Positions 2,594 through 35,762 of a DNA stretch of 63,153 bases are shown here, one piece after another; position 1 is the stretch's first letter, and the number at the start of each line of letters is the position of its first letter. Below the pieces are notes generated by a model. It saw nothing but the letters and a program-made list of their open reading frames with translations. It did not search any database and was not told the DNA's origin. The stretch comes from a virus. Lineage: Duplodnaviria; Caudoviricetes. The position numbers and the translations under genes were made by a program. The stretch is from the IMG/VR virus record IMGVR_UViG_3300037422_000132, positions 1 to 63,153 of that record; one strand, written 5' to 3'.

Positions 2594-4072
2594 TCATGAC
2601 CACCCCGTTTCGTTTGATTGTTCGATTTCCTCTTGGATCCGCTTCAGTTCCCCCCAAACCTCTTGGTGCGCTTTCGGGATTTGGTCCAGCTTGGCCTTTT
2701 CTTCGGCCGCCTTCACCTTTTCATCGATTTCGGCCTTGGCGAAACCGTATGCCCTGGCCATGACGATGTGGCAGACCTCATCATAGACATGATCCTCTTG
2801 GTCGGTGTCTATGTCCTCCGGGTTGTCTGCGTCCATCGCCAGCGCCGGCATGGTACGGATGAAATGACGGCATTCGGACGACGTGACCAACTTCGGAAGC
2901 TTATTCGATTCGATCGGAATGACGAGCCGCTCGCGCATGGCTCGGATTTTGAGGATTCTGCTTGGGTCGCCCGGTCGTAGGATAATGCCTTTGTCTCTGA
3001 AGACTTCGGCTGTAGATGGTCCTTGACCGCCTCCGGCATAATCGGCTTTTTTGTTCCAACAATCCGGCCCGGCGAGCCGAACGATATGGCGGCCCGCAAT
3101 GCCAAGCTTATGTTCGCGCTCGATGATCCCTTCAGCGATAGCTGAATCGGGCATCCGTAAGCCCTCATCGGGTACGCCGTTGTATCCGTACCACTCAGAA
3201 AACCGATAGAGCCGGTCTTCAGAATCACACCACCACCATCCGATTGAGAACGGCTTGCCGAAGCCCCAATCGAACGTTTGATAGAGCGCCACATACGCCG
3301 GCGGCGCCGCCTCTTTCGAAGACAGGATATGCCTGCGAGTGATGTTGAACGCCTGCCCGATGTAAACGTCCCAATCGCCATCCAGCCACGCCTTTCTCAA
3401 AACCGGGTCTTGGATCCCTGTCAGTTGTAAAACGTACTTCGGATCGTTTTCAACAAGAATCCTGTTGTCAGCCAAAAACGATTGGATATAGACCTTGAGC
3501 AGACCTTGCGCGTCGCGCCAGGGTTTTCCGCTCTGAACCCCTCCGGTTCCAAGCCGGAAGTGCTCCTTTACCTGAAGGTGGCCCGGCCCCCCTGGGTTGC
3601 CCGTGCAAAAAATCGCGGTCGGTATCCCGTGGGGCGATCGGTTCGCGCCTTTGAGTTTATCCAGTAGCTTCGCAAACCACGGAAAGTTGGTACATTCGTC
3701 AACCGAAATTTCCGGGTATTGATGCCCCTGAATATCCTCGGCTTGCTCCAGCCGTTGAAACGCCAGCATCGACACGTTGGCGCCATTCGCAAACCGAATA
3801 TAGTTCGGCTGTGCTTCGCCGCCGATCCGCTCGGCCGGAACCCCCTTGCCTATCAACTCATCCCAGCGCCGCCTGAGTTCGGCAAAGTCCTTGTACTTGC
3901 GCCGGATGATTAACCCATTCCACAAGCTGCCCCAACGCTCAACGCCAACAAGGTGCCGACCAATCAGCGCATCACTCTTGCCGCCGCCGCGCGTCCCACC
4001 GAAAATGATTTCGTCGGCGGGACACGAGACGGCCAGCATTTGAGGCCCGGCTTGTGGGGTCCATAACGACAA
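2594..4072 (-). CDS. terL: Terminase large subunit
   Basis: Walker A GGTRGGGKS, Walker B ISVDE, TGNPGG motif III, nuclease motifs FDWGFGKPF and EDHVYDE. Confidence 0.95.
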   Translation of the reverse strand: MSLWTPQAGPQMLAVSCPADEIIFGGTRGGGKSDALIGRHLVGVERWGSLWNGLIIRRKYKDFAELRRRWDELIGKGVPAERIGGEAQPNYIRFANGANVSMLAFQRLEQAEDIQGHQYPEISVDECTNFPWFAKLLDKLKGANRSPHGIPTAIFCTGNPGGPGHLQVKEHFRLGTGGVQSGKPWRDAQGLLKVYIQSFLADNRILVENDPKYVLQLTGIQDPVLRKAWLDGDWDVYIGQAFNITRRHILSSKEAAPPAYVALYQTFDWGFGKPFSIGWWWCDSEDRLYRFSEWYGYNGVPDEGLRMPDSAIAEGIIEREHKLGIAGRHIVRLAGPDCWNKKADYAGGGQGPSTAEVFRDKGIILRPGDPSRILKIRAMRERLVIPIESNKLPKLVTSSECRHFIRTMPALAMDADNPEDIDTDQEDHVYDEVCHIVMARAYGFAKAEIDEKVKAAEEKAKLDQIPKAHQEVWGELKRIQEEIEQSNETGWS

Positions 4073-4076
4073 AACC

Positions 4077-4484
4077 TTAAACCTCCGGAGGCGGCTCCGG
4101 CGCGGCCGGCGTATTCTCGACCAACGTTTCTTCGATCTTCTGGATGCTGAGAATCATGTTTTTAGCGATCGAATCCACCTGAGCCTGCTGGGCTGCTGTC
4201 AGGTCGCGCTGCTCCAGCGCTTCCAGTTCAGCCTTGATGCCGTCCACTTTCGCCCGGAAACCGTCCAGCGCGATGTTCAGCGCTTCGATCCGTTGAATTT
4301 GGTTTACCGACAACTCCTTGATTTCGTCCAGCGTCGTCATAATTTGCTTCTCCTTTTCGATGATTAGAATGATTGCCTTGAGGACAATATCCCACCTTTT
4401 ATTCTTGGGCGTCCCCCATCCAAGAAGATTGCGAAGGGCCTCGATTACCGTCATGCCCACCTTGACTTGAATTGGATCGATCAC
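4077..4484 (-). CDS. Coiled-coil hypothetical protein
   Basis: GTGA overlap with upstream stop, GAGG RBS, heptad-rich TTLDEIKELS...AQVDSIAK. Confidence 0.6.
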   Translation of the reverse strand: MIDPIQVKVGMTVIEALRNLLGWGTPKNKRWDIVLKAIILIIEKEKQIMTTLDEIKELSVNQIQRIEALNIALDGFRAKVDGIKAELEALEQRDLTAAQQAQVDSIAKNMILSIQKIEETLVENTPAAPEPPPEV

Positions 4485-22793: not shown

Positions 22794-25700
22794 CTATCGC
22801 ATGAGTTTAGCTGCCTCTTTCAATGTCAGCCTGCCCTTGCCGGCTGGTTTTTCCTGTGGTTCCCCTTCCGACCGCTTGGCCGCCGCCCGTAGCTGCGCCT
22901 TGGGCGCCTTTAAATAGGTATCTTGATACCATGTGAGCGCCCGCCGGTAGGTGTTCATTTCCTCCGGGCTAAGGGTCTTTAAATATGCGCCCCAATCCTT
23001 TTGGGCAAGGTTGCCAAGCGGGTGCGCCCGCTGGATGGACTTATCCAGGCCCTCGTCGGAGCCCCCCAGCGCATAGTATTGCCGGAGGTATTTCTCGGCG
23101 GCGCCAAGGTCGCCAAATTTCAAGCCCTGCTTGTAGTAATAGAGAGCATTGGATTTGTCGGTCGGCGTGACTCCAGGGTATTCCTTGCCCTTGCTCTCGC
23201 GGTACTTTATGACCTTGCTGATGGTTTCATAGTAAGCCGATTCTCCAGGATCGCTGTAATAGAACCCGATCGCCATGAGGTCGTTGGCAATCCGCTCGCC
23301 GACGTTATCGCCGCGCTTTGGTTTGCCTGTCAGCCATCGGTGGAGCGAATCGGCCGAAAACATACGCGCAACGTGTTCCATTTTGTCCCGGATCGGTCGC
23401 GGGTTGAAGGGGTCCGGGTAAAATGCCTGCTCGGACAAAACTTCGGCGCCCGTTTTCACGTCCGGCCTGAACGCATTGATGATTTTGATTGGGGTGGCCA
23501 AGACGGAATCCTTTGCGATGTCGCCAAACGACTTACGCCCCTTGTAATACGCCTTGGCATCCTGAATAACGTCTTCCATGCCAAACCATGACAGCGCATC
23601 GCTGAACGCCCCCTGAATTCTCAGCGTTCGGATGGTCCCATCCGCCCGGCGCCCAAGGATAAGATGAAGCTGCCGGCGCTGGTCTTCGCTCAACTCGTCT
23701 TCCTCGTCTCCAAAGAAAGTCGCGTTCCAAAGGTTCACGGCTACGAAAAAACCGGAAACCTTGACCCCCAGCTTGGTGGCTTTCCAGGCAACATTTTTGC
23801 CGAATAAGGCGGCAAGCCGGGCCTGGCCGCTGCGCCCCTCGTGGCGGAAGTTGCGCATCAATCGGACGTACCTCGGCAGGTTAATTTCCATCCAGGAATA
23901 GAAGGGCAGTAAATGATCCCGAATGAACTTGCCCGCATGGCTGATGTTGCCGTAATCCCCGATCAACTCCCTGGCCAGCTTTGCCGCTTTCCGATCCGGG
24001 TCCGTGATGCCGTCCACTTCAGCCCGGTTCGATGCTCCGTAAACCGTGTTGCCAGCTGCCACTTGAACCCTGAAATAACGAAAGGCCGCCAGCCGGAGCC
24101 AATTCTCACGGAAACGGGTGAACTCCTTCAGGTTGCGCCAGCCGCGTTTGATGACGTTCGGCCGATCGCCCCGGAGGGCCTCCATCTTCTCCATTAAGGA
24201 AAGGTTCCGCGTAAGCTCTGAAACCTCCTGAAATGCCCATCCAGAATCAAGGACGGATAGCTCATAGGCTAAGTCAAGCTCTTGCTGAAGGGCTTGCGGT
24301 AGCTCTTTCTTGTCACGGTACTCGGTTGTAAGGTCTTTGACAGCATTGAAGAAGTAATGGGTTACAATTTTAGGATCATAGGCGAAAGCGATGTCCATAT
24401 CACCCGATAGGTTATTCAGATTATAGCGAAATACCCGGTACGGATTGACCAAAATCCACTTTTTCCAAGCGCTCATGGCCGCCTTGCTGGCGCGTGAAAG
24501 CTTTTGGTCGTCATGGGCCTTGTCAAAGCCGTCCAGGGTTTGAGCAACCCCTGTCGGGATGATCCAAACGGCATCCCGGCCCCTGGCCAAGACGCGCGTG
24601 ATTTTGTCGGCGTTGTCCTGGCCGATCACCACTTCCCCGGCTTGCACGGCCGCAACGAGTCGATCCGATAGGCTGTAAGCCTTGTACCATGACTTTCCGG
24701 GCGCCGGCTTCCATTCGATATAGCCCTCCGGGATAAGCTTCTTCACGGTCACGAAACGGCTTCCCAGCGCCCCCTTGATATGTTTGTCCCGGTTGGCGAT
24801 CGCCTTTCGGATCGTGCCGGCGTAAACCGCCCCCGGAAGCTGGGCTTTCATCAAGTGGTTGAGGAACGCGAAGAATCGGCTTTGCTCCATCATCGGACCG
24901 CCAGCCGCCCGGCCGCCTGCCGCCAGATCCGTGATAACGTCGTCCCACTCCTGGCCAACCCCAACGAATTTGTTGTCCTTGGCCATCTTGCGAAGCTTGC
25001 TCGTTGCTATGGCGATCGTCTGCTTGTAGGGCTTGAGGGGGTCCATGTCGGTGTCGATGATGTCGTCACCGGTCAAAGGTGGATTTCCGGGATTCAGCCG
25101 GTTGATCCGGTCGGCTTCCAGGTCGTAGAACATTTTCAGATTTTGCCGCTTGGCCTGGGCTTTTAAATTCGCCGCGATGTCCACGAGCGCCCGGATACGG
25201 TCCAGGGTTTCCCGCGTCTCAAGCTGGCTGAACCCCTGGGCCAAAACCTCGAATTCGGATTCGGCATATTCGGTGTTGTAATCGGCCACTGAGCCGACAC
25301 GGCCGATTTGCCATCCCTTGCGCTTCAGCCGCACGTCGTCGGAGCCTACAGAAAGCCCCTCGTAGGCTTCGCCCATCGCCGCTTTGGCCCGGTAAACCAA
25401 GACTTGATGGTGAAAATACCGATCGTCCTGTAAGACGGCTTCCGGCAAAAGGTCGGCGTCTACTAGAGCTCGCTTCATTTTTTCCTGAAACGCTTGGCGC
25501 CGGTCATAGGCGGAACTAATGATCGGGTCACTATCTGAAACCAATTGCAGATAATCCCGATACTGCCGGGCCTCTGCCTCGGTAAACCCGAATGGAAGTT
25601 CGTCCTTGTTCGCCAAGAGCCCGGAATCGATGTCGCGGATCATGTCGTCCATGATGATCCGCAAGCTGAATACCTCGTACTGCTTAGGCTTCATGCCACC

Positions 25701-28700
25701 AACGATGTTCTGCAAAACCTGCATGGCCCGCCGGATCGCGTTATCCGGCCCGTCCTGGTGTGTCCGTAGAACGTCGGCGACGGTCGCCTGTTCCTCAGCG
25801 TCCAGGAAAGGGCGATGCCTGGTCATGCTGTGCCATACGTCCCGGCCATGAATTTGAACCGATTTCAGGAACCCGGCGAAGGGAACCCCCTTCGAGGCAA
25901 CCATTCTTTCCTTAATCTCATCGCGGAGCCCGGCGAACGGGTCGGCCTGGGTGTCTTGCTGAGACGTGACAAACTGGCTCGGCATGGCTGCCCGGAGCGC
26001 TTCTAGATAGGTCTTGGCCACGGGGCTCATGCGTTTGACACTGAAAAGCGGAAAGCCCTTTTCAATCGCTTTGCTGCGCATTTCAGGCGTTACCCGCATC
26101 GACCAAACTTCCATCGGCGGATAAACCCAATTCATTTCCCCGCCCCATAATTCGGCAACCGCCATGCTGCCGTGGCGCCGGATTGCATCCTCGAACGGCA
26201 TCCCGCTCATTTCCATTTCGTCGGCGATCGCTTTCATCTGGTTTTGAAGTTGTACCGACGTACCCCAATTCTGACTTTGCATGCGCAAATCATGCAGGGA
26301 AGGAATTGGCCCGGTGTAGGGTCCAAAATGCGCCGGCCCGGAGCGTCCTAAGTCGATCCCGTAGGGCTCAACCCTGGCATTACCCCACGCTGGTTTGCCG
26401 AAAAGCTTGTTCATTTCTTGCGGCAAATTCACGTTGTAAATGAACTTGTGAAGCTGCCCGCCGATTGAAAGGTCTTTGCCTTTGAGTTCGCCCTCCCGGT
26501 CCTCTATGATTTGCGCGGCAATTTTTTTGCCAAGCACTTCTTCAAGGCTCTTTCCTTTGCCCGGTCCTGAAACGAATCGACCATCCGACACGTTGCCGTC
26601 GAACGTCATTCTGCCTTCTTTATAGGCATGCACCCTGATATGCGATGATCCTTGGAGACTGCGCTCGGCGATGATCCTTTTGGCATCTGCGATCACCCGC
26701 TGGGGCGAATCGTCCCAAATGGTGATTGCCGCGTTGTCGGGGTCTTTGATCCTCCAAAGGTCGCGCCCTATTAGCTTTACGAGCCGATAGCCGGCCGGGA
26801 GTACGTCGTCCGGAAGCTGGGCAATCCCCGGATCGCCCATATGAAGCCATTCAATCCGGTCCACGTTCTGCCGGAGGGCGTCATTGTAACGCTCGATTTG
26901 CTGTTCTCCGGTCGGCCATGCGATCCGGTCAAACCCGTTTTCCGCCGCCCATCGAACCATGCGCTTCATGGCCAGCATCGACCAAGTGATTTTGAAAGGC
27001 GCATCGGGAACCTGCCCGGTAACACTGACAAGCTCCGAATTCATTTCCTCGCGGTAAATTCTCATTTCCTCGTCGGTAAGCTTTTCTCCGGCCTCCGATT
27101 TCGCTATGATCCGCTGATGGACAGGGTTTGCATAACCAAGCTTGCGCCCCTTTTGGTGCCAATCGGATTGAACTTCTTCGATAAATAGGACTTTTTCGGT
27201 CGCCCCCGTGGTATCGTTATGGAATTCCCGGTGGCGGGAGTACTGTGCCGCTTCAAGCTGGGTGATCGCCCCCGCCCTTACGGCCGCCGCCGGCCCGCCG
27301 CTGCCTATGTCGTCCGGGTTTTCGACGCCAACGACCTTGGCGATCCTATTTTCTATGTCCTCGATTTGTTCGATCGTATAAGTGGATTGCTCCCTCTCGT
27401 TGAATCGCATGTGAACGACGATGTTCGGGATACTGTAATGGCTTGAAATGAAGTTGGTGGCTGGGCTTACCCTCTTTGACTCTCGCTGAATTCTGGCGCT
27501 TTCCTCCCTGGCCATATGAGCGATCGCTTCTTCGTCGGTTCCACTGAAACCGAATCTTGTCGCAATGATAACCCCCTCGCTATCCCGGATGCTGATGTCG
27601 CGTTGCCCGGTGTGCTCATAAGTTCTCACCGTGAAAACCTTCCAATCACTTGTGTCAACGGATCCAACCTGCGGGGAAGGGTTTACCGGAATGGACAGGA
27701 CAAGCTCCCGGTAGTTTCTGGCGCCGCCAAACTGATAGCCCGCGTAAATAGCCTTTGGCTCGTCAAGAAGGCTTGCGGCCTCTACGATCATGTTCCTTTC
27801 TTCTGGCCAAATGACGCCTTGCTCAACAAGGTATTCAATGTTGCCTTGGATTTCTTCGTCTGTATCGATTTCCCTCAAGTAAAACCCGATTGAATACCGC
27901 CGGCCGTCCTCGTCACGCCGGTCGCTTGGGATTTTGATGCTCAATGGCTCGGTATCGATTTCGTCGTCGTACTCGATTTGCCATCCGTTTTTCTTGAGGG
28001 CTTTCATGTGGCTTTTCAACTTGGAATCAGCCTCACCATAAATTGTCTCGTGAACGTGGATGTTGTTCAAACTCAGCCAATCAAGCAATTGACGCTTGGT
28101 GATCTTGTCGCCCGGCTCCATCGCCAGCGCATCCGTGACGTGGGACCACTCCATTTCCTCGGCCTTGTATTTCCCTTCTTTTGCCCACTTCGTTATCATT
28201 TTGATAAAATCAGCCGGTCGGCCCGATCCCGGAAGCTTCTCGGAAAGGAAGTCGTGCATTTGGGAATAGAACGGAGAATCGGAGGGTTTCACGACTGACG
28301 GATAAACTTCAGGTTTTTTGTTCGCAAGCCATGCGTCGGTGGCCGCCACGATGTCGTGATCCGCCCCCATGTAGCCGTCATAGGCTTCCCGGAAATACTG
28401 CGCCCGGCTGGCCTCAATCATGGCCCGGTCGAAATTGCCCGCCTCAACGTAGCGCTTGGCCAAAATTTTTGAGACGGCGTAAAATCTCAGCATTTCCTCG
28501 GCGCCGGCCTTGTCTGACTCCTGGCCATACTGCCGCGCTTCCTGGGTGGTGGCAAACTGCGGGGCGCTGGCAAGCTCTGCTTCAAGCTCAGCCGTAGCCA
28601 TATCCTCGCTTTTCTTGATCGACGCCAGGACGGGGCCGGCATAGGGGCGCTGGAGTGTCCGAACCTGCTTGTATCGGATCAACCGCTCAATAGTCTGAAC

Positions 28701-31700
28701 CCCCCGGCTGTCGGTCGGGATGAAATAACGGTATTTGAATTGGACCATTTCTTGAAAGACGCCGTACCCCTGAATGGATCGAAAATCGTAGAAGTCCGGT
28801 CCCACGATTTCAATCCTATCATCGCCGGACAAGTTGACCCGCTTGATTTCCCAACCGTTTACAAGAACCGCCGTGGCGTTGTTCTCAAGGATTTCCCGGT
28901 GTACCTCGGCCGGATCATAGTTGCGTAGCTCAACGGTCACGCCCAAATTTTCCAGGGTTACGGCCAGCAATTTTTCAGGGATAACCCGTCCAAGGATTCG
29001 TTCGCCGTCGTCGGTTTGCATCCGGTAAATGCGCGTGTCTCCCTGGAGACGGTCCCATATCGGCAAAAGGGGCGCGGTCAAAACGTGATGGGTTTCCGTC
29101 CTGGAAGTCGGAAGCGCTTTGAATTCTTCGTTCCAAAGCCGCTCGGCCTGCTCCCGGTCAACTTCCTCCCATTTTTCGCGGTCGGAAAGTACGCCAAGAT
29201 CAACTTGCTGGATAGAGGATTCGGACGGACCCCGGAGGGTCTTGTAAACCACGGTCTGCCCGGCGGAACTTCTTGACCGAACATCGGATGCAACCCAAAT
29301 TCGGCCGGATTTTATGTTACGGTGATACTGAACATCATGGGTCCGATAGTTGAAAAGCCCCTGGCTGGCCTGGAACGTGATATTCTTGGTCGGCTTTTCG
29401 ACTTCAATTTGGATGTACTTGGTTTCGGCCGCCGTAAGTGGATCCACATTGACAGACTGTTCGGATATTTTCCGAACACTCGTTCCACTGATGGTTTCAA
29501 TCCCAACGTCCAGGGTGCCGGCTTCCGCGTGTCGAGTGACAACGGCATCGATTCGCTGAAAGAATTCGTCAAAAATCATGCTCTGCCGCTCAAGAGTCAT
29601 GGCCAGCGCTCGGTTCAAAAACCGTGGGGCACCCGGGAACCCATTGGGTGGAACCTTCTGGCCATTCTCGTCCACAAGCAAAATGCCCGTCTCGGCATGG
29701 AATTGCTGGGGCGTAATCAAAACGTTGCCATCCGGGTCAATAAGCGCCTCGTCCTGAATATCCATTAAAAGCCTGGCAAGCCCTTCCCGTGCGTATTCGT
29801 TTTCGAGGTTATCACGAGCCTGAAAAATCCCCTGAGAGCCGGTCTGCCGCTGGCCCTTGGTCAGCGCTCCAAGCTGATCCAAGCGCCGGGCGATCGTTGA
29901 GATGAAGCGCATTTGGCCCTTGATGTCAGTAGTGACGAGCCAGAACTTTGGTGCCACGGCCTGATTAGAACGGTGCGAACGACCAAGCCCTTGAACAGCC
30001 CGGACAGCGTTCCAACCGGATTGTAACAGGTAGTGAATACGTTTCTGCTGGTTTTTGGAATCAAGATCGGCGTGATAGCTGGCGCCCGTGCCGCCGGCTT
30101 CCGAAAAAATCAAAACCCGTTTTTTGAAGTCCATGAAGGTGGTCGCGTCCTTAACGCTTTTGTCCTTGCTCCACGCCTCTTTCACCAATTTACCTTCATC
30201 GTTGTAAACGAAACGAAACGGACGCGAAGTTACCTCGGCCACATTGTCTTGCCCGAAATGGTGAATAATCATGTCCAGTGGGCTCGTGGGAATTCCCTGG
30301 ATGGTGTTCACGTCGGCAATCAAGGCATCCCGCATTTCAAGGGCCTCCTGGTTGATTACCGGGTTGCCCTCTGAGTCGTAAACCGGACGCATCCTTGTTT
30401 TGCCGTTATCGTCCGTATAGGGCTCATACTGTTGAATGGGAAAGTAGGCCGTTAGGAAGTTGGTCAAAACCTCTTTGGGGCTCAAGTCGAGGTCTTCAAG
30501 TTCCTGGTCTTCCTCCTTGCTATCGTATGCCCGTTTGGCCTGAGCGTTGCCTGTTTTGGTAAGTTGAAAAATAACCGAATGGCCCGCTTCAAGGTCGCGC
30601 TCGGCGCTTTGAATCACGGAGGGCATTTGCATGGCGGTCACGACCGAATCGAAAAAGCGCTGCTGCGATCCCCAAAACATCGACCACATTTGACCCTTTT
30701 TGCCTCCGGTGTGCGCCATCGCATCGTGAATCCCACGGAAAATGTTCTGCCATGCCTCGGCCATTTTGTCGTAAGAGGCCCGTTGCCGGTCGTCCAGAAC
30801 GTGCGTCATGCGATCATATTCAACGTCGTCATACGACAAGGCGCGCGCGATATAGAGCCCACGGGCTTTAAGGTCGCGGGCGATCATCTCCATGCCGGCG
30901 ATCCCGGAACGTAGCAGGGAACCGACAAAACGCATCGCGTTTGTAAAAGCGGTCCCTTCGCCCCACAACCCCAGCCGATCGGCGTACACCAAATTTTCGA
31001 CTTCTACCGCCCCGGTAGCCGACACATAGACGATCCGCGCATTAGGCAGTAGGGTCGATAACAGCATCCCGGCTTGAGCCTGTTTGGCTGGCGGCCTGCT
31101 GCCTCTCGCCCCTGCGGCCGGAGCCAAATTGCGCATGTTGTGCGCTTCGTCGAAAGCGATTACCCCGTCAAAATCACGTCCCAGCCAATCGACAATTTGG
31201 TTTAGTCGGACGGTCATATCATTCAGGCTGGCGGGCTGATCGGGGCGAATGTTTTCAAATTCTTTGCGAAGGGACGCATAGCTGATGAATAGAATCCCTT
31301 CTTCCCTGGTGATCTTCGGCAATGGGGGGACTTCTACCTGTTGCCCGCGTTGCCTCCTGGGCCGTGGCGGTTCCCCCTTCTTACGCTTGGGCTGCTCCGC
31401 GTTCGGGGCTTTAAAGAGGATTTTGCGCCCGTGTTCCCAACCGATCCCGGTAATGCGCCGCTTGCCGGTATTCGGATCTTCTTGTTCCCCGTACAGATCG
31501 CGGGCCGCATCTTTTCTAAGGTCCGGCTTTTCCGAAACCCAAACCGCCTTTTTCCGGCCGCGCAAGTAGTTCTCCCAAATGATCGCCCCTATTTCGCGCC
31601 CCTTGCCCACGCCGGTCCCGTCGCCGATGAAGAAGCCACGGCGCCGGCCATCGGGCAAAACCACTTCAAACGACTGATTGGAATAGACGATCGCCTCGAT

Positions 31701-34700
31701 TTGCGCTTCGCTGATGTTGCCGTTTTCGATTACCGACATTGGAATGAGAAGCTTGTAAGTGGGGGTCGGCAATTCGGTATCCGCCATCGCCACGGACTGA
31801 ACAAGCTTCGAGGGGTGAGGCTGGGCGCCGGGAATTATAACCCTGGGCTTGTAGTCGTCAAATAGGGAATCCTTGATTTCCTGGGGCGACTCGGCCTTGT
31901 TCTTCCCCTGGTCGGTGTAGTCAAGCTCATTCGGGGGAAGTTGCTCGTCTTCTTTCTTTTTGGCTTCAAGGGCCGCCCGGATGTCCTCTTGGATGAACTT
32001 GTTGATATAGACTTTGCCCTTCGCCGGAAGCTTCGTGTAGGCATGCCGGATAAAAGCCTTGGCCGCTTCTTTCAAATCGGCGATCGCCTCTTTAAAACCA
32101 TCCCACATTTTTGACAAGGCCATGTGGACGGCCGGCCATTTCTGTGGATCGATTTCCAGTTCGTCGTCTTTTTTGATCGAAGCAAACAGGTCGTTGAAAT
32201 CCTTGGTCGCTTCGTCAATTTTTTTCTGCGCGTCGGCCGCCTTCTTTTCGGTCATGTCCTTTTCTTCTGGAGTCAAAAGCGGCGGCGGGGTAATGAGAAC
32301 GTCACGGGGCTTTTTGGGCGCCCTGGGCTTTTTCTCTTTCGGCGGCTTCGTCGGTGCGGTCGGTGCGGTCGGCGCGGTCGGCGCACCCCGCTCCAGCAAC
32401 TTGAATTGACCCCTTACGTCTTTATGGTAGGTAGTGCTTTCCGAAGTTTTGACAACAACGTATTTCGCCCCTACTGCGGTTACGACTCCCTCATTTTCAG
32501 GCGTAGGACCGGCTCCGGGATAGTCCTCAAATTGCACACGGTCGCCAACTCGCAAGCCGGTTCCGGTTATAAGGGTTTCCGAAGTTGTGGATGGTGTGGC
32601 GGCGGGCTCCGGCGCGGGGGCCAGTTTTTCTTCGGCGGCTTTTTTCTCGGCCTCTTGCTCTGAGAAGTCCAAGAGGTCGTTGATGTCGCCGTCTACGCTT
32701 CCTCGTCCTCCGGCTCGATCCCCTTCATCCGGTCGCGGAGTTCCTCCGCTAACGCCTGGGCCGTCGATGTCGGGCTGGCTGTCGGCAGGTTGTGGAATTC
32801 CAGGCGTAACAGTTCCGCCACGCCCTCCGGGTCTTGATCCGGTAGGCCCGGCAGGTAATCCGCTAGCTCCGGCTCCAGTTCCAGCCGCCCCTTCTCCTGA
32901 GCCCAAAGTATCAGTTGGACCGGGTAAAGCTGCTGGTGGTCGATCGGCGCTTTCAGGCGTTCCAGGTGACGGAGGGATTGCTGGCTGATCGGAAGTTGGT
33001 TGAGTTCCTTGATCGCCGGTAGATAACGAGGGTCGGTCATTTCGCACCCCCTCAAGTAGAGGGATCAATTCTTCAATTTTCTCTGCATGACCTGTGAGGG
33101 GATTATACTTTGTCCGGCCGTTTTTGTCAATGACGATGATTTGATTGTCGAACGTGGTCCCATACTTGGCATACTCCTGGCCCGATATGGAAATGTTCGC
33201 CCGGACATTGTACCGTGCTTTGATCGTTTTCCACCACGCCTTGAACGCTGGCGCGTTGTCGGCCATGCCACGCCCAACAATTGCAACCAGCCGGCCGTTT
33301 GGCTGAAGACGGGCAAGGGCCTGCTCAATATGCCGGGCGCCGTACTTCGTTCTATTGGTAGCGGTGCGCCCCCCGGTCGAGGAAAAGGGTGGATTCATCC
33401 CGATGATGGTAGGCCGGATGTTGTGGGGCAAAACGTTGTTGATCTGTTCCCCGTCCTCGGTGAAAATGCGATCGATTTTCAAGCTTTGGAGAATGGCCGC
33501 CCGGCGCTTACTCAACTCGTTTGCATAAACCTCCTTCACGTCGGCGTTGATCGCAAAAACGAGAATCCCGCCGATACCCGCTGAAGGTTCGAGGAAAACG
33601 TCCTCCGGGTCCATCTTTAAAGTCCAGCCCACGACGTAGGCAAGCGGCGGCGGGGTTGAAAATTGCTGGAATTCCTGTTGCTCCTGAGTGCGCTTGGTCT
33701 GTGTCGGAAGCCGCTCGATCACAGTTTTCAAGTCATTGATGGTGCGCCTGGCCGCTTCCGGGCTGGCGTCCATGTCGATGGTAAGGCTGCGCTGAATGGC
33801 GAAATTCACGCCAAGTTCCATTGCGTCATAAGCATCCTTGGGGGTGTATTTCCCCTCGGCCTGGGTGCCGCCGAAATACTTGTCGGCCGCTCCAAAAAGT
33901 TCACGCCAATCAAACGCCTCTTTCTTTTCGATCTTGGACAAAACCCAATAACCAAGCTGCTGGGTAGCGCTCCGCGCCCTGGGGCTCCCGCCGGTTTCTT
34001 CCTCGGTGAGCTCTAGAATCGAATCGCCGTTTTGGTTGGTAGTACGTCGAAGTTGGCCCTTTTCAATAAGGCTTTGGATTACCTGGGCCTGCTGGGGCTT
34101 GGTGGCGCCGTCGATGATAAGGTTGTCCTCGGCGATCCGGTATCCGGCGTTTCTGATTTTCCGCAAAGCCTGATCCTCGAACTCCTTGTATTTTGCGGTG
34201 ATGTCGCCGGGCTCCAGGGGCTTTGAAAGAAAGTAAACAGTAGTCGGAGGGTTGTTCGGGTGTTCCAGGCTTTTTGTCGTTAAAGCCACGATTTGATTTG
34301 TGTCGATAAGGCGTTGGAGTGAACTTTCAACCTCGGCGGGGACTTCTCCGGCAAGAATTCGTTCCCTCATAACCAAGTCGGCTACGTTGCCACCTTCTTT
34401 CCGTAGCCCTTCCAAAATTTTATTTTCAAGCCGCTCGTTGCGCTCGGCCGGCTTTTCGGGCTTTGCCGTTGCTGGCGCCGTCGGTTCCTCAACCCGCTCG
34501 AAATCATCCGGCCTGAAAGTCATGGCGCCGGTATTCTCGGTTTTGATCCACTCCTTGCCCTCGGTGTCCCGCCGGATGAAAGTGACTCGACCGCCAATGC
34601 CCGGAGAAAGCCCGCTGCCCTCCTTCGGGCGCACGATGTCGCCGACTTTGAACGGGCTGATTTGCCCTTCCTCGGCCCGCTTAAACTCGCTGGAATCCCG

Positions 34701-35762
34701 ATAAATGTTTCCGCCGCCCACGACCGCAACCCTGCCATTCTCAGGCTCGATGTCCGAAATGGTCATGACTTCCCGGTTGAATCCATATGTAAATTGGACC
34801 TTGGCTCCTACCGGGCCAAGCCGCTCAATGGTAAGCTTTTGGTTTTCCGTCAACGGCATCGGTTCGGGCTTGATTTCGGTCTTTTCATGGCCCTTGAGCA
34901 TTGAATCCCAACGGGTTCCAAAGCCCTGGGCAATGAGGTTTTTGGCAAACATGAGCGCATAACGCCTATCGCGCCCCCGATGTTCCCCTCCGGACAATGG
35001 ATTCGGAACAGCCGTTTCGAGCAAGGATAAATGCCCTTGGACCCCAACGGCATAGACCATTTCGGAATCCATCCAAGTATCGCCGGAGCCCTCCTTGTCG
35101 TGGATGTAGTGGGTGAAGTAAATGGCATCATGCCCGGATGGGTGCGCATGTCGCTCGATAACCAAGTCAAGGTATGGGTCATGCTTTACAACGAGGTAGT
35201 AATCGGATCCTTCCAGGATTTCGAATGGAATTCCAAGTTGATAAAGCAACCGCGCAACCGTCTTTTCAGCATTACCGCCCACTTGCGCTTTCGGCGGCAG
35301 AATGAACGGCCGCGCGGCCGATGGACTTTCAACCGGGCGCCAAACCGCCCACTTGTCCGGGCCGTCGAGGATTACCTCGCCGCCGACATTATCGGCCAGT
35401 TTTTGAGCATAGGCTTTGTTGCCCACACCCCTGGCAATTATTTGGTTGTATCCCGTGGTTTCATTCCCAACCACGGTGCCGGGACGCGCCGACGACCAAT
35501 CGACCAAGGGCGTCGGCGCCGGCTTGGCCTCATACTTCTTGCGCTCGATGTCGTCGAACTCGAAGCCAAAGATGCTCTTGATTTGGTTTTCGATGTCCCT
35601 GCGCTCTGATTCAAGCTGGTCTATGTAGTCTTTAACCGCCCCGGTTGCCGCCTCGTGGGCTTCGTAGCCCTCGTTCTTGCGGTCGTCCACCTTTCCGTTG
35701 ATGATCGCCGCCTCGTGTTCACCAAGGCCGATTTTGTCTAAGCAAAATTTTAAGCCGCCCAT
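22794..35762 (-). CDS. Giant polyvalent (DarB-like) ejection protein, 4322 aa: DUF6908-like domain, N6-adenine methyltransferase, strawberry-notch SF2 helicase, further polyvalent-protein domains
   Basis: QQFSTP/LEPSAG/NPPF; GDGTGVGKG/FDEAH/VSATG/SEAGGTG/QGLGRSHRSNQ; FIEEVQSDWHQ; C-terminal GDYGN..PFYSW. Confidence 0.9.
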   Translation of the reverse strand: MGGLKFCLDKIGLGEHEAAIINGKVDDRKNEGYEAHEAATGAVKDYIDQLESERRDIENQIKSIFGFEFDDIERKKYEAKPAPTPLVDWSSARPGTVVGNETTGYNQIIARGVGNKAYAQKLADNVGGEVILDGPDKWAVWRPVESPSAARPFILPPKAQVGGNAEKTVARLLYQLGIPFEILEGSDYYLVVKHDPYLDLVIERHAHPSGHDAIYFTHYIHDKEGSGDTWMDSEMVYAVGVQGHLSLLETAVPNPLSGGEHRGRDRRYALMFAKNLIAQGFGTRWDSMLKGHEKTEIKPEPMPLTENQKLTIERLGPVGAKVQFTYGFNREVMTISDIEPENGRVAVVGGGNIYRDSSEFKRAEEGQISPFKVGDIVRPKEGSGLSPGIGGRVTFIRRDTEGKEWIKTENTGAMTFRPDDFERVEEPTAPATAKPEKPAERNERLENKILEGLRKEGGNVADLVMRERILAGEVPAEVESSLQRLIDTNQIVALTTKSLEHPNNPPTTVYFLSKPLEPGDITAKYKEFEDQALRKIRNAGYRIAEDNLIIDGATKPQQAQVIQSLIEKGQLRRTTNQNGDSILELTEEETGGSPRARSATQQLGYWVLSKIEKKEAFDWRELFGAADKYFGGTQAEGKYTPKDAYDAMELGVNFAIQRSLTIDMDASPEAARRTINDLKTVIERLPTQTKRTQEQQEFQQFSTPPPLAYVVGWTLKMDPEDVFLEPSAGIGGILVFAINADVKEVYANELSKRRAAILQSLKIDRIFTEDGEQINNVLPHNIRPTIIGMNPPFSSTGGRTATNRTKYGARHIEQALARLQPNGRLVAIVGRGMADNAPAFKAWWKTIKARYNVRANISISGQEYAKYGTTFDNQIIVIDKNGRTKYNPLTGHAEKIEELIPLLEGVRNDRPSLSTGDQGTQPTSDQPAIPPSPGTPESADRPPAALPGPTDTLGSGEGAAGTGAGASGLPAGPTGSRPGGRGGTVTPGIPQPADSQPDIDGPGVSGGTPRPDEGDRAGGRGSVDGDINDLLDFSEQEAEKKAAEEKLAPAPEPAATPSTTSETLITGTGLRVGDRVQFEDYPGAGPTPENEGVVTAVGAKYVVVKTSESTTYHKDVRGQFKLLERGAPTAPTAPTAPTKPPKEKKPRAPKKPRDVLITPPPLLTPEEKDMTEKKAADAQKKIDEATKDFNDLFASIKKDDELEIDPQKWPAVHMALSKMWDGFKEAIADLKEAAKAFIRHAYTKLPAKGKVYINKFIQEDIRAALEAKKKEDEQLPPNELDYTDQGKNKAESPQEIKDSLFDDYKPRVIIPGAQPHPSKLVQSVAMADTELPTPTYKLLIPMSVIENGNISEAQIEAIVYSNQSFEVVLPDGRRRGFFIGDGTGVGKGREIGAIIWENYLRGRKKAVWVSEKPDLRKDAARDLYGEQEDPNTGKRRITGIGWEHGRKILFKAPNAEQPKRKKGEPPRPRRQRGQQVEVPPLPKITREEGILFISYASLRKEFENIRPDQPASLNDMTVRLNQIVDWLGRDFDGVIAFDEAHNMRNLAPAAGARGSRPPAKQAQAGMLLSTLLPNARIVYVSATGAVEVENLVYADRLGLWGEGTAFTNAMRFVGSLLRSGIAGMEMIARDLKARGLYIARALSYDDVEYDRMTHVLDDRQRASYDKMAEAWQNIFRGIHDAMAHTGGKKGQMWSMFWGSQQRFFDSVVTAMQMPSVIQSAERDLEAGHSVIFQLTKTGNAQAKRAYDSKEEDQELEDLDLSPKEVLTNFLTAYFPIQQYEPYTDDNGKTRMRPVYDSEGNPVINQEALEMRDALIADVNTIQGIPTSPLDMIIHHFGQDNVAEVTSRPFRFVYNDEGKLVKEAWSKDKSVKDATTFMDFKKRVLIFSEAGGTGASYHADLDSKNQQKRIHYLLQSGWNAVRAVQGLGRSHRSNQAVAPKFWLVTTDIKGQMRFISTIARRLDQLGALTKGQRQTGSQGIFQARDNLENEYAREGLARLLMDIQDEALIDPDGNVLITPQQFHAETGILLVDENGQKVPPNGFPGAPRFLNRALAMTLERQSMIFDEFFQRIDAVVTRHAEAGTLDVGIETISGTSVRKISEQSVNVDPLTAAETKYIQIEVEKPTKNITFQASQGLFNYRTHDVQYHRNIKSGRIWVASDVRSRSSAGQTVVYKTLRGPSESSIQQVDLGVLSDREKWEEVDREQAERLWNEEFKALPTSRTETHHVLTAPLLPIWDRLQGDTRIYRMQTDDGERILGRVIPEKLLAVTLENLGVTVELRNYDPAEVHREILENNATAVLVNGWEIKRVNLSGDDRIEIVGPDFYDFRSIQGYGVFQEMVQFKYRYFIPTDSRGVQTIERLIRYKQVRTLQRPYAGPVLASIKKSEDMATAELEAELASAPQFATTQEARQYGQESDKAGAEEMLRFYAVSKILAKRYVEAGNFDRAMIEASRAQYFREAYDGYMGADHDIVAATDAWLANKKPEVYPSVVKPSDSPFYSQMHDFLSEKLPGSGRPADFIKMITKWAKEGKYKAEEMEWSHVTDALAMEPGDKITKRQLLDWLSLNNIHVHETIYGEADSKLKSHMKALKKNGWQIEYDDEIDTEPLSIKIPSDRRDEDGRRYSIGFYLREIDTDEEIQGNIEYLVEQGVIWPEERNMIVEAASLLDEPKAIYAGYQFGGARNYRELVLSIPVNPSPQVGSVDTSDWKVFTVRTYEHTGQRDISIRDSEGVIIATRFGFSGTDEEAIAHMAREESARIQRESKRVSPATNFISSHYSIPNIVVHMRFNEREQSTYTIEQIEDIENRIAKVVGVENPDDIGSGGPAAAVRAGAITQLEAAQYSRHREFHNDTTGATEKVLFIEEVQSDWHQKGRKLGYANPVHQRIIAKSEAGEKLTDEEMRIYREEMNSELVSVTGQVPDAPFKITWSMLAMKRMVRWAAENGFDRIAWPTGEQQIERYNDALRQNVDRIEWLHMGDPGIAQLPDDVLPAGYRLVKLIGRDLWRIKDPDNAAITIWDDSPQRVIADAKRIIAERSLQGSSHIRVHAYKEGRMTFDGNVSDGRFVSGPGKGKSLEEVLGKKIAAQIIEDREGELKGKDLSIGGQLHKFIYNVNLPQEMNKLFGKPAWGNARVEPYGIDLGRSGPAHFGPYTGPIPSLHDLRMQSQNWGTSVQLQNQMKAIADEMEMSGMPFEDAIRRHGSMAVAELWGGEMNWVYPPMEVWSMRVTPEMRSKAIEKGFPLFSVKRMSPVAKTYLEALRAAMPSQFVTSQQDTQADPFAGLRDEIKERMVASKGVPFAGFLKSVQIHGRDVWHSMTRHRPFLDAEEQATVADVLRTHQDGPDNAIRRAMQVLQNIVGGMKPKQYEVFSLRIIMDDMIRDIDSGLLANKDELPFGFTEAEARQYRDYLQLVSDSDPIISSAYDRRQAFQEKMKRALVDADLLPEAVLQDDRYFHHQVLVYRAKAAMGEAYEGLSVGSDDVRLKRKGWQIGRVGSVADYNTEYAESEFEVLAQGFSQLETRETLDRIRALVDIAANLKAQAKRQNLKMFYDLEADRINRLNPGNPPLTGDDIIDTDMDPLKPYKQTIAIATSKLRKMAKDNKFVGVGQEWDDVITDLAAGGRAAGGPMMEQSRFFAFLNHLMKAQLPGAVYAGTIRKAIANRDKHIKGALGSRFVTVKKLIPEGYIEWKPAPGKSWYKAYSLSDRLVAAVQAGEVVIGQDNADKITRVLARGRDAVWIIPTGVAQTLDGFDKAHDDQKLSRASKAAMSAWKKWILVNPYRVFRYNLNNLSGDMDIAFAYDPKIVTHYFFNAVKDLTTEYRDKKELPQALQQELDLAYELSVLDSGWAFQEVSELTRNLSLMEKMEALRGDRPNVIKRGWRNLKEFTRFRENWLRLAAFRYFRVQVAAGNTVYGASNRAEVDGITDPDRKAAKLARELIGDYGNISHAGKFIRDHLLPFYSWMEINLPRYVRLMRNFRHEGRSGQARLAALFGKNVAWKATKLGVKVSGFFVAVNLWNATFFGDEEDELSEDQRRQLHLILGRRADGTIRTLRIQGAFSDALSWFGMEDVIQDAKAYYKGRKSFGDIAKDSVLATPIKIINAFRPDVKTGAEVLSEQAFYPDPFNPRPIRDKMEHVARMFSADSLHRWLTGKPKRGDNVGERIANDLMAIGFYYSDPGESAYYETISKVIKYRESKGKEYPGVTPTDKSNALYYYKQGLKFGDLGAAEKYLRQYYALGGSDEGLDKSIQRAHPLGNLAQKDWGAYLKTLSPEEMNTYRRALTWYQDTYLKAPKAQLRAAAKRSEGEPQEKPAGKGRLTLKEAAKLMR
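32693..33040 (-). CDS. Nested out-of-frame ORF (115 aa) inside the giant gene
   Basis: GAGGGGGTG RBS then ATG; helical amphipathic product; coincides with a Gly/Pro-rich linker in the main frame. Confidence 0.6.
   Translation of the reverse strand: MTDPRYLPAIKELNQLPISQQSLRHLERLKAPIDHQQLYPVQLILWAQEKGRLELEPELADYLPGLPDQDPEGVAELLRLEFHNLPTASPTSTAQALAEELRDRMKGIEPEDEEA

Follow-up and report, generated by a model that had tools for sequence, protein, structure and literature searches.

A small gene probably nested in the linker of a giant methyltransferase-helicase gene of phages and conjugative plasmids

The window analyzed here is a complete IMG/VR virus record of 63,153 bp (IMGVR_UViG_3300037422_000132; Duplodnaviria, Caudoviricetes), and its minus strand carries a giant polyvalent gene that combines a methyltransferase (MTase)-like domain with a Strawberry-notch-like helicase. 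A second open reading frame (ORF) lies wholly inside this giant ORF, on the same strand and in a different frame, with its ATG at 33040-33038 and its TAG at 32695-32693 (Table 1). The nested ORF has an apparent start codon and ribosome-binding site of its own, GAGGGGG-N6-ATG, in which the G-rich stretch resembles a Shine-Dalgarno (SD) site. The MTase-like domain ends with the residues ..LLEGVRNDRP, which overlap the nested SD-like site and ATG, and directly after it the main frame encodes a low-complexity linker, 69% of which is Gly, Pro, Ser, Thr, or Ala. An earlier note, made from the letters of the sequence, had described a same-strand ORF of 115 codons in another frame, opening at ATG 33040 behind a ribosome-binding site, opposite a low-complexity stretch of the main frame that directly follows the methyltransferase-like domain; we find the ORF and the linker as it described them.

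Table 1. Features of the giant gene and of the nested ORF in the window
Feature	Position	Strand	Remarks
Giant polyvalent gene, main frame	22794..35762	-	4322-aa ORF, open throughout
Methyltransferase-like domain, aa 619-911	33030..33908	-	EPSAGIGG and NPPF motifs; annotated tblastn relatives
Gly/Pro/Ser/Thr/Ala-rich linker of the main frame, about aa 908-1023	32693..33041	-	Stop-free; shares the DNA of the nested gene
Strawberry-notch-like helicase, N-terminal nucleoside triphosphatase module, aa 1315-1666	30765..31820	-	Pfam AAA_34
Helicase C-terminal module, aa 1828-2090	29493..30281	-	Pfam Helicase_C_4
Nested gene (putative)	32693..33040	-	ATG, 115 sense codons, and TAG; +1 frame of the giant gene
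SD-like GAGGGGG	33047..33053	-	Six bases 5' of the nested ATG; conserved ..LLEG.. motif in the main frame
TGA closing the +1 frame	33065..33067	-	Eight codons 5' of the nested ATG

Length by itself does not set the nested ORF apart, as the window lists 150 ORFs of at least 100 aa. An ORF that arose by chance in a GC-rich stretch and has no function would be in keeping with a window so rich in off-frame ORFs of this size and with the lack of any match to a known family in the database searches described below. The codon usage of the nested frame is, however, gene-like. Under codon scores derived from 15 other long ORFs, the nested frame has a log-odds of +27.6 bits over the nested interval and the main frame -31.1. 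By codon position (1/2/3), the GC fraction of the nested frame is.75/.36/.74 and that of the main frame over the same interval.73/.75/.36; the nested profile is similar in shape to that of the whole giant gene,.60/.41/.65. When the giant gene was scanned in sliding 240-nt segments, an off-frame outscored frame 0 in 11 of 425 segments, all 11 of them contiguous (33152..32852), and the 15 control genes, which are also the training set, gave 0-2 marginal segments each. The nested interval is the sole stretch of the 13-kb giant gene with gene-like off-frame codon usage. Two other same-strand off-frame ORFs of the giant gene (24523-24948 and 34850-35182, minus strand; 141 and 110 aa) show no off-frame coding signal in the sliding scan and look like chance ORFs. 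The integrity of the sequence is supported by the contigs of one DNA run, which match the interval identically and without gaps; this run may come from the source sample itself. A relative of about 90% identity is represented in two wastewater runs, X2 and X3 (labelled RNA-Seq, flagged as possibly DNA), by contigs of 150-214 nt at window positions 32692-33053; these span nearly exactly the nested ORF, with little flank, and allow no inference about expression.

The same slot is occupied in most viral relatives. Eighty viral loci were fetched with the MTase domain as bait, and a hidden Markov model (HMM) of the nested-protein family was iterated. A family member is found in 70 of the 80 loci, 69 times in the +1 frame immediately after the MTase domain; the 70th locus, L077, has its family member on a contig with broken frames. 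The first distant member comes from locus L002, where a giant ORF of >3960 aa contains it in the +1 frame; AAGGAG and an ATG stand where the MTase domain ends, and over this member the main frame is likewise a Pro/Gly linker. In 71 of the 80 loci, the nested start as placed by script precedes the end of the MTase match by 4-10 nt (69 ATG, 2 GTG); the median nested length is 125 codons. An SD-like motif is present at -16..-5 in 53 of 62 distinct nested ORFs, as compared with 8.8% of other ATG triplets. In all viral loci except one (79/80), the main frame is stop-free from the MTase match onward over the whole of the fetched sequence (up to about 3 kb). At the end of the MTase domain, the main-frame motif LLEG[VI]RNDR shares its DNA with the nested SD-like site, spacer, and ATG (33041-33062, minus strand), in relatives as in the window, and the nested start signals may account for the conservation of this motif as much as the MTase does.

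Some loci depart from this pattern. In L018, L019, L025, L037, L039, and L065, the slot (about 3850-4230 in each locus) is taken by a different ORF with an acidic product of 116-123 aa, in the +1 frame and with the same SD and ATG. Comparison of five of these odd-slot proteins with the main family by hhalign detected no homology (probability 0.2%); either the slot may be open to unrelated small genes, or the odd-slot lineage may have diverged beyond recognition. The four viral loci that have no nested ORF carry a short linker or a different domain at this place. In the viral locus L077 and in a contig of Polaromonas sp. CG9_12 (L113), the main frame contains a stop and the family peptide lies in another relative frame, which suggests a decayed copy or an assembly frameshift.

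The arrangement is also present outside viral contigs. Matches to the MTase domain occur in 589 plasmid records, and the nested gene was found in four plasmids, two from Methylomonas and one each from Methylotuvimicrobium alcaliphilum 20Z and Thioflavicoccus mobilis; it is absent from four more distant plasmids inspected. It is present in 17 of 80 bacterial genome loci, distributed as 17 of the 22 with an MTase identity of at least 40% and none of the 58 below that value. According to their record titles, these carriers belong to Burkholderiales, Clostridia-type metagenome-assembled genomes, Syntrophales, Methylococcaceae, Chromatiaceae, Opitutaceae, and Xanthobacteraceae. Sixteen of the 17 have the nested ORF in the +1 frame and an open main frame.

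Substitutions between relatives follow the nested frame within the overlap and the main frame outside it. Differences were summed by main-frame codon position over 10 independent locus pairs, giving counts at positions 1/2/3 of 259/178/623 in the 280 codons upstream (MTase), 226/152/143 in the overlap, and 333/240/670 in the 250 codons downstream. In the overlap, the maximum shifts to main position 1, which is nested position 3. The amino acid identity of the nested frame equals or exceeds that of the main frame in 10/10 pairs, with pooled values of 0.81 vs 0.74 from the same aligned DNA. For the relative of about 90% identity from the two wastewater runs, 11 of the 18 listed differences fall on nested third positions (37 more are unlisted). 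The main frame bears a signature of its own. At a nested third position followed by a codon starting with AA, AG, or GA, which we call stop-prone, a T would create a main-frame stop; T occurs at 0/2479 such sites in the 62 distinct nested ORFs, as compared with 9.8% of their third positions that are not stop-prone and with 19.4% (921/4750) and 17.3% (735/4248) of the equivalent sites in flanking single-coding sequence. None of the 62 distinct overlaps contains a main-frame stop, and the third frame across the nested ORFs has 8.4 stops per 100 codons. When nested codons were resampled synonymously at genome usage, the probability of an open main frame was 0.0021 for the window and 5e-5 for L002. 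Both frames are thus under selection across relatives, because T is missing from every stop-prone site and the substitution phase switches at the overlap; the counts span related loci and hence are not independent trials, and we regard their direction as unambiguous.

These data bear on whether the giant ORF is one gene at all. It could instead comprise separate MTase, small, and helicase genes, with frame 0 open between them by chance or assembly error, and the atypical main-frame codon usage of the interval, the frame breaks at the interval in L077 and L113, and the fact that gene callers sometimes emit the small ORF alone can all be read in this way. However, an open main frame is seen in nearly every viral locus as far as the fetched sequence reaches and in 16 of the 17 genome loci with a nested ORF, T is excluded from stop-prone sites where controls carry it at 17-19%, the simulated probabilities of an open frame are small (0.002 and 5e-5), and the contigs of the DNA run agree with the window without a gap. 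We consider separate genes highly improbable.

The nested product belongs to a family that can be recovered by sequence search. Its closest relatives in a word-indexed search are two 115-aa proteins, 96% and 78% identical to it. An exhaustive HMMER profile search of 1.84 billion representative proteins, which the earlier note had proposed, gave 26 matches at E<=1e-3, about 20 of which are 112-128 aa long and aligned from residue 1. Family proteins are about 110-160 aa long and share the motifs N-x-x-P-x-[NS]-Q, near the N-terminus, and L-Q-L-x-x-W-A; homologues extend down to about 20% identity, at one fixed position. A few long proteins among the profile matches were rejected as spurious (hhalign probabilities 0.7% and 0.1%), and in the better-scoring of the long matches, P0019, the matching stretch looks like an ankyrin-type repeat. 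The source name of P0003, "DNA polymerase III psi subunit", was not reproduced by Pfam. Protein P0008, from a 131.5-kb contig, runs past the usual stop into a tail, ..ATKEFNDLFK, that resembles the downstream main-frame sequence of the window, ..EATKDFNDLFAS.., and its genome may encode the small domain as an in-frame fusion with the downstream part. Searches of cultured-phage records with the 115-aa product (tblastn) and with 3 kb of the region (blastn) gave no match, nor did a single giant-gene segment, A1 and A3 as queries against viral, metagenome, and genome contigs.

The nested protein is predicted to be a compact acidic bundle. An AlphaFold2 model built from a 68-sequence alignment has a mean predicted local distance difference test (pLDDT) score of 90.6, a predicted template modeling score of 0.85, and six helices. 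The isoelectric point (pI) is 4.58, near the family median of 4.71, and 51 of 62 members lie below 5.5. No consistent family was found in Pfam, PHROGs, NCBIfam, or PADLOC; at E<=1 in Pfam, no nuclease family recurs among 68 members, and each of the 25 families listed, of 33, matches a single member. The best E value in a sequence-profile search of the PDB was 0.34, Foldseek returned nothing at E<=1e-3 from the PDB or BFVD, the best Z in VIA-align over 48,161 chains was 3.1, and the ESM Atlas gave no usable match; by the tools' own notes, such negatives do not prove a new fold. DNA-mimic anti-restriction proteins such as Ocr and ArdA are small and strongly acidic and imitate DNA in fold or charge pattern; the pI of the nested protein fits the acidity, and the absence of Ocr- or ArdA-type proteins from the Foldseek and VIA-align lists for the nested model excludes nothing. 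As for an ORF open by chance, conserved homologues at a fixed position, the phase of substitution, the start signals, and the confident fold all speak against it, and it is already refuted as far as the comparative data go.

A programmed +1 frameshift near the G-run would give a fusion of the MTase with a small domain ending at 32693, and no independent small protein. SD-like elements stimulate the +1 frameshift of prfB, and here the SD-like GAGGGGG with its run of five G (33051..33047) lies just upstream; family member P0008 is also fused to other sequence. Yet a frameshift would not need a start codon, and one is found at the MTase end in 71/80 loci. In the window, the +1 frame is closed upstream by a TGA (Table 1), and frameshift entry would therefore be confined to a short stretch; a +1-frame stop lies within 5 codons upstream of the start in 25 of the 62 distinct ORFs, and one codon upstream in 12. 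Family members have been called as free-standing proteins beginning at residue 1, and no shift-prone codon-plus-stop context was seen in the window by eye, without a formal scan. A search for longer fused forms of the nested protein found none, which is weak evidence by the tool's own note. With upstream +1 stops and a conserved start codon, the nested ORF does not have the features of a programmed frameshift site, and we rate a frameshift as very improbable. Internal initiation is preferred because the start is placed at the MTase end, the +1 frame has stops upstream, and members begin at residue 1.

Selfish insertion of an out-of-frame mobile element, tolerated because the host frame reads through it, has a documented example in ShiLan, where an HNH endonuclease ORF is described as hidden out of frame within a phage's DNA methylase gene whose own frame continues stop-free through it as a loop (PMC11855218). 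The stop-free host frame with an ORF hidden in another frame is an architecture that the nested ORF shares. The ORF is missing from some relatives, in which the linker is short (L066, L067, and alphaproteobacterial plasmids), and an unrelated small ORF uses the same slot in 6/80 loci, both of which would fit an inserted element. On the other side, searches of Pfam, NCBIfam, and PADLOC found no nuclease family, and the model predicts a small bundle of helices. Rather than being scattered, the gene occurs in 70/80 relatives, with its start firmly tied to the point where the MTase domain has its conserved end. Pairwise identities of the nested protein and of the MTase co-vary (r = 0.67, reached by 0/2000 Mantel permutations), as expected for vertical descent, with the nested protein diverging faster (about 0.50 identity where the MTase is at 0.7-0.8). 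Because these identities correlate, vertical inheritance is favored over homing. The nested ORF thus has neither the homing endonuclease nor the sporadic distribution and host-independent history of a ShiLan-type element, and we regard selfish insertion as a slim prospect, if marginally less so than a frameshift.

Taken together, homologues, a conserved position, start signals, the phase of substitution, and a confident fold prediction lead us to conclude, with a probability of about 0.88, that the nested interval is truly dual-coding and that the overlapping gene is real and conserved. Several observations weigh against this conclusion. Ten of the 80 viral relatives have no detectable family member (6 with an unrelated small ORF, 4 with none), and, as related loci share ancestry, counts of loci are counts of non-independent events. 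The wobble excess of the nested frame, 43%, is weaker than the 54-59% of ordinary genes. Permuting only the ORF's own synonymous codons gives a probability of an open main frame of 0.069 for the window and 0.076 for L002. P0008 (157 aa) extends into sequence resembling the downstream main-frame region, so the arrangement is not uniform. Translation of the nested gene is argued from sequence-level evidence, and no family, fold, or neighbor from the Pfam, PHROGs, NCBIfam, PADLOC, PDB, and BFVD searches provides a functional lead.

The earlier note had gone further than the position of the ORF, and most of its reasoning is supported by these results. Its expectation of a folded, acidic, helical product agrees with the pI and the six-helix model, and its proposal of a real overlapping gene in an apparent linker is the conclusion reached here. 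The suggestion that the linker is a by-product of the overlapping gene stands only in part: the nested gene appears to be real, but the main frame is actively kept open, as the stop-prone sites indicate. The same applies to its remark that standard annotation would miss the gene. The plasmid gene tables list only a giant "strawberry notch-like" coding sequence (CDS) over the nested ORF (the PLSDB tables are incomplete), whereas some metagenome gene callers have called family members separately. The note also offered that the product might be a chaperone or an inhibitor of the adjacent methylase/helicase, which stays a conjecture.

The comparative evidence indicates that the giant methyltransferase/Strawberry-notch-like helicase gene is read straight through in frame 0, yielding a flexible Gly/Pro-rich linker, and that the +1 frame of the same DNA encodes a separate 115-aa protein, which has an SD-like site and ATG of its own. 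Ribosomes would initiate internally on the giant-gene mRNA at the conserved SD and ATG. A sequence-tolerant linker would let the two frames coexist and would lock the two products into co-inheritance and co-expression, as for lambda Rz/Rz1. The arrangement appears to be old and vertically inherited in one clade of giant genes, found in phages, conjugative plasmids, and other elements of several bacterial phyla. The nested frame may have had its gene-like codon usage from the beginning or may have gained it later, since the linker frame is otherwise almost unconstrained, and either the small gene or the read-through may have come first.

The nested protein would work together with the giant protein. 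A dedicated partner, either a chaperone for assembly or delivery or a regulator of the methylase-helicase dyad, is the role to which we give most weight, at somewhat less than even odds; a small acidic counter-defense protein that acts independently and rides with the giant gene seems unlikely. The functional tie to the giant protein is the weakest step, and we infer it from strict co-location, seen in phages, plasmids, and several phyla alike, and from the Rz/Rz1 precedent. On a wider and rather doubtful view, the linkers of giant polyvalent proteins would be a conserved hiding place, and the small acidic proteins, those of the odd slot included, would be obligate partners from the same mRNA that control delivery or activity of methylase-helicase counter-defense in phages and conjugative plasmids, in the manner of Rz/Rz1 and with a fold unmatched among solved structures.

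The outer protein itself matches DUF6908, AAA_34 (3.9e-101), and Helicase_C_4 (2.3e-79) in Pfam. The MTase-like domain has no Pfam match in the giant protein; its conserved EPSAGIGG and NPPF motifs are what we take to be methyltransferase motifs, and tblastn relatives of the giant gene are annotated as "DarB-like antirestriction protein", "N-6 adenine-specific DNA methylase", and "strawberry notch-like". The giant protein has the methylase-helicase dyad of polyvalent proteins (PMC5512222), with the MTase part assigned from motifs and annotated relatives. In the window, the giant gene is on the same strand as portal-like and virion-structural-like genes. In the Methylococcaceae plasmids L083 (NC_016108.1) and L084 (NZ_CP064652.1), the genes that precede it encode a type IV secretion DNA-transfer (coupling-type) protein, a TraF signal peptidase, and topoisomerase III, and in L084 an additional small "TraD" gene lies upstream. 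The annotated giant CDS of NC_016108.1 begins inside the MTase match, after a separate "hypothetical protein", and the N-terminus of this giant gene may be split or mis-called. Farther along the main frame of the window, an APTAPTAPT-type repeat (32318-32391) draws unrelated contigs of a freshwater run, with loose ends on both sides and a depth of 110-226 as compared with about 8 elsewhere; this pile-up looks like a low-complexity cross-match and not a phage feature.

Fully embedded, independently selected genes are rare in phages and easily missed, and the comparative set is unusually clean here, with viral contigs, conjugative plasmids, and the genomes of several bacterial phyla. The nested proteins add an unrecognized family whose fold is predicted with confidence and for which no structural relative was detected, and they show that the "disordered linkers" of giant mobile-element proteins can carry a second gene. 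Cultured carriers exist, as the Methylomonas and Methylotuvimicrobium plasmids show. Polyvalent methylase-helicase proteins are thought to protect incoming DNA, and a hidden co-expressed component would therefore change how such systems are dissected and annotated. No prior description of the nested gene was found in full-text literature searches (supplements excluded).

Among known systems, polyvalent proteins with a DNA methylase-helicase dyad were described by Iyer et al. in 2017 (PMC5512222). The outer gene resembles these proteins, and the P1 DarB-like proteins, in its methylase and SWI2/SNF2 (Strawberry-notch-like) helicase dyad and in its occurrence in phages and conjugative elements; the main text of that paper does not appear to describe a second gene hidden in a linker, and the words "overlapping" and "frameshift" each occur 0 times in it. 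The ShiLan element, as described, encodes a homing endonuclease, is distributed selfishly and sporadically, and lacks a detectable ribosome-binding site (PMC11855218), whereas the nested ORF shows no sign of a nuclease, possesses an SD-like site and ATG that are conserved, lies after and not inside the methylase domain, and co-diverges with its host gene. The closest likeness in layout is to lambda, in which Rz1 is reported to lie entirely inside Rz in the +1 frame, where the Rz protein has a mutationally silent linker (PMC5295617). There, as in the nested pair, the inner gene lies in the +1 frame of the outer one, on the same strand and in a linker, so that the frames do not compete (PMC5295617). 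The two cases differ in that Rz and Rz1 are short lysis proteins whose assembly into one complex is known, whereas the pair described here, known from sequence alone, joins a 4322-aa methylase-helicase to a soluble-looking, acidic inner protein of predicted helical structure, in an arrangement that is also carried on plasmids and in bacterial genomes.

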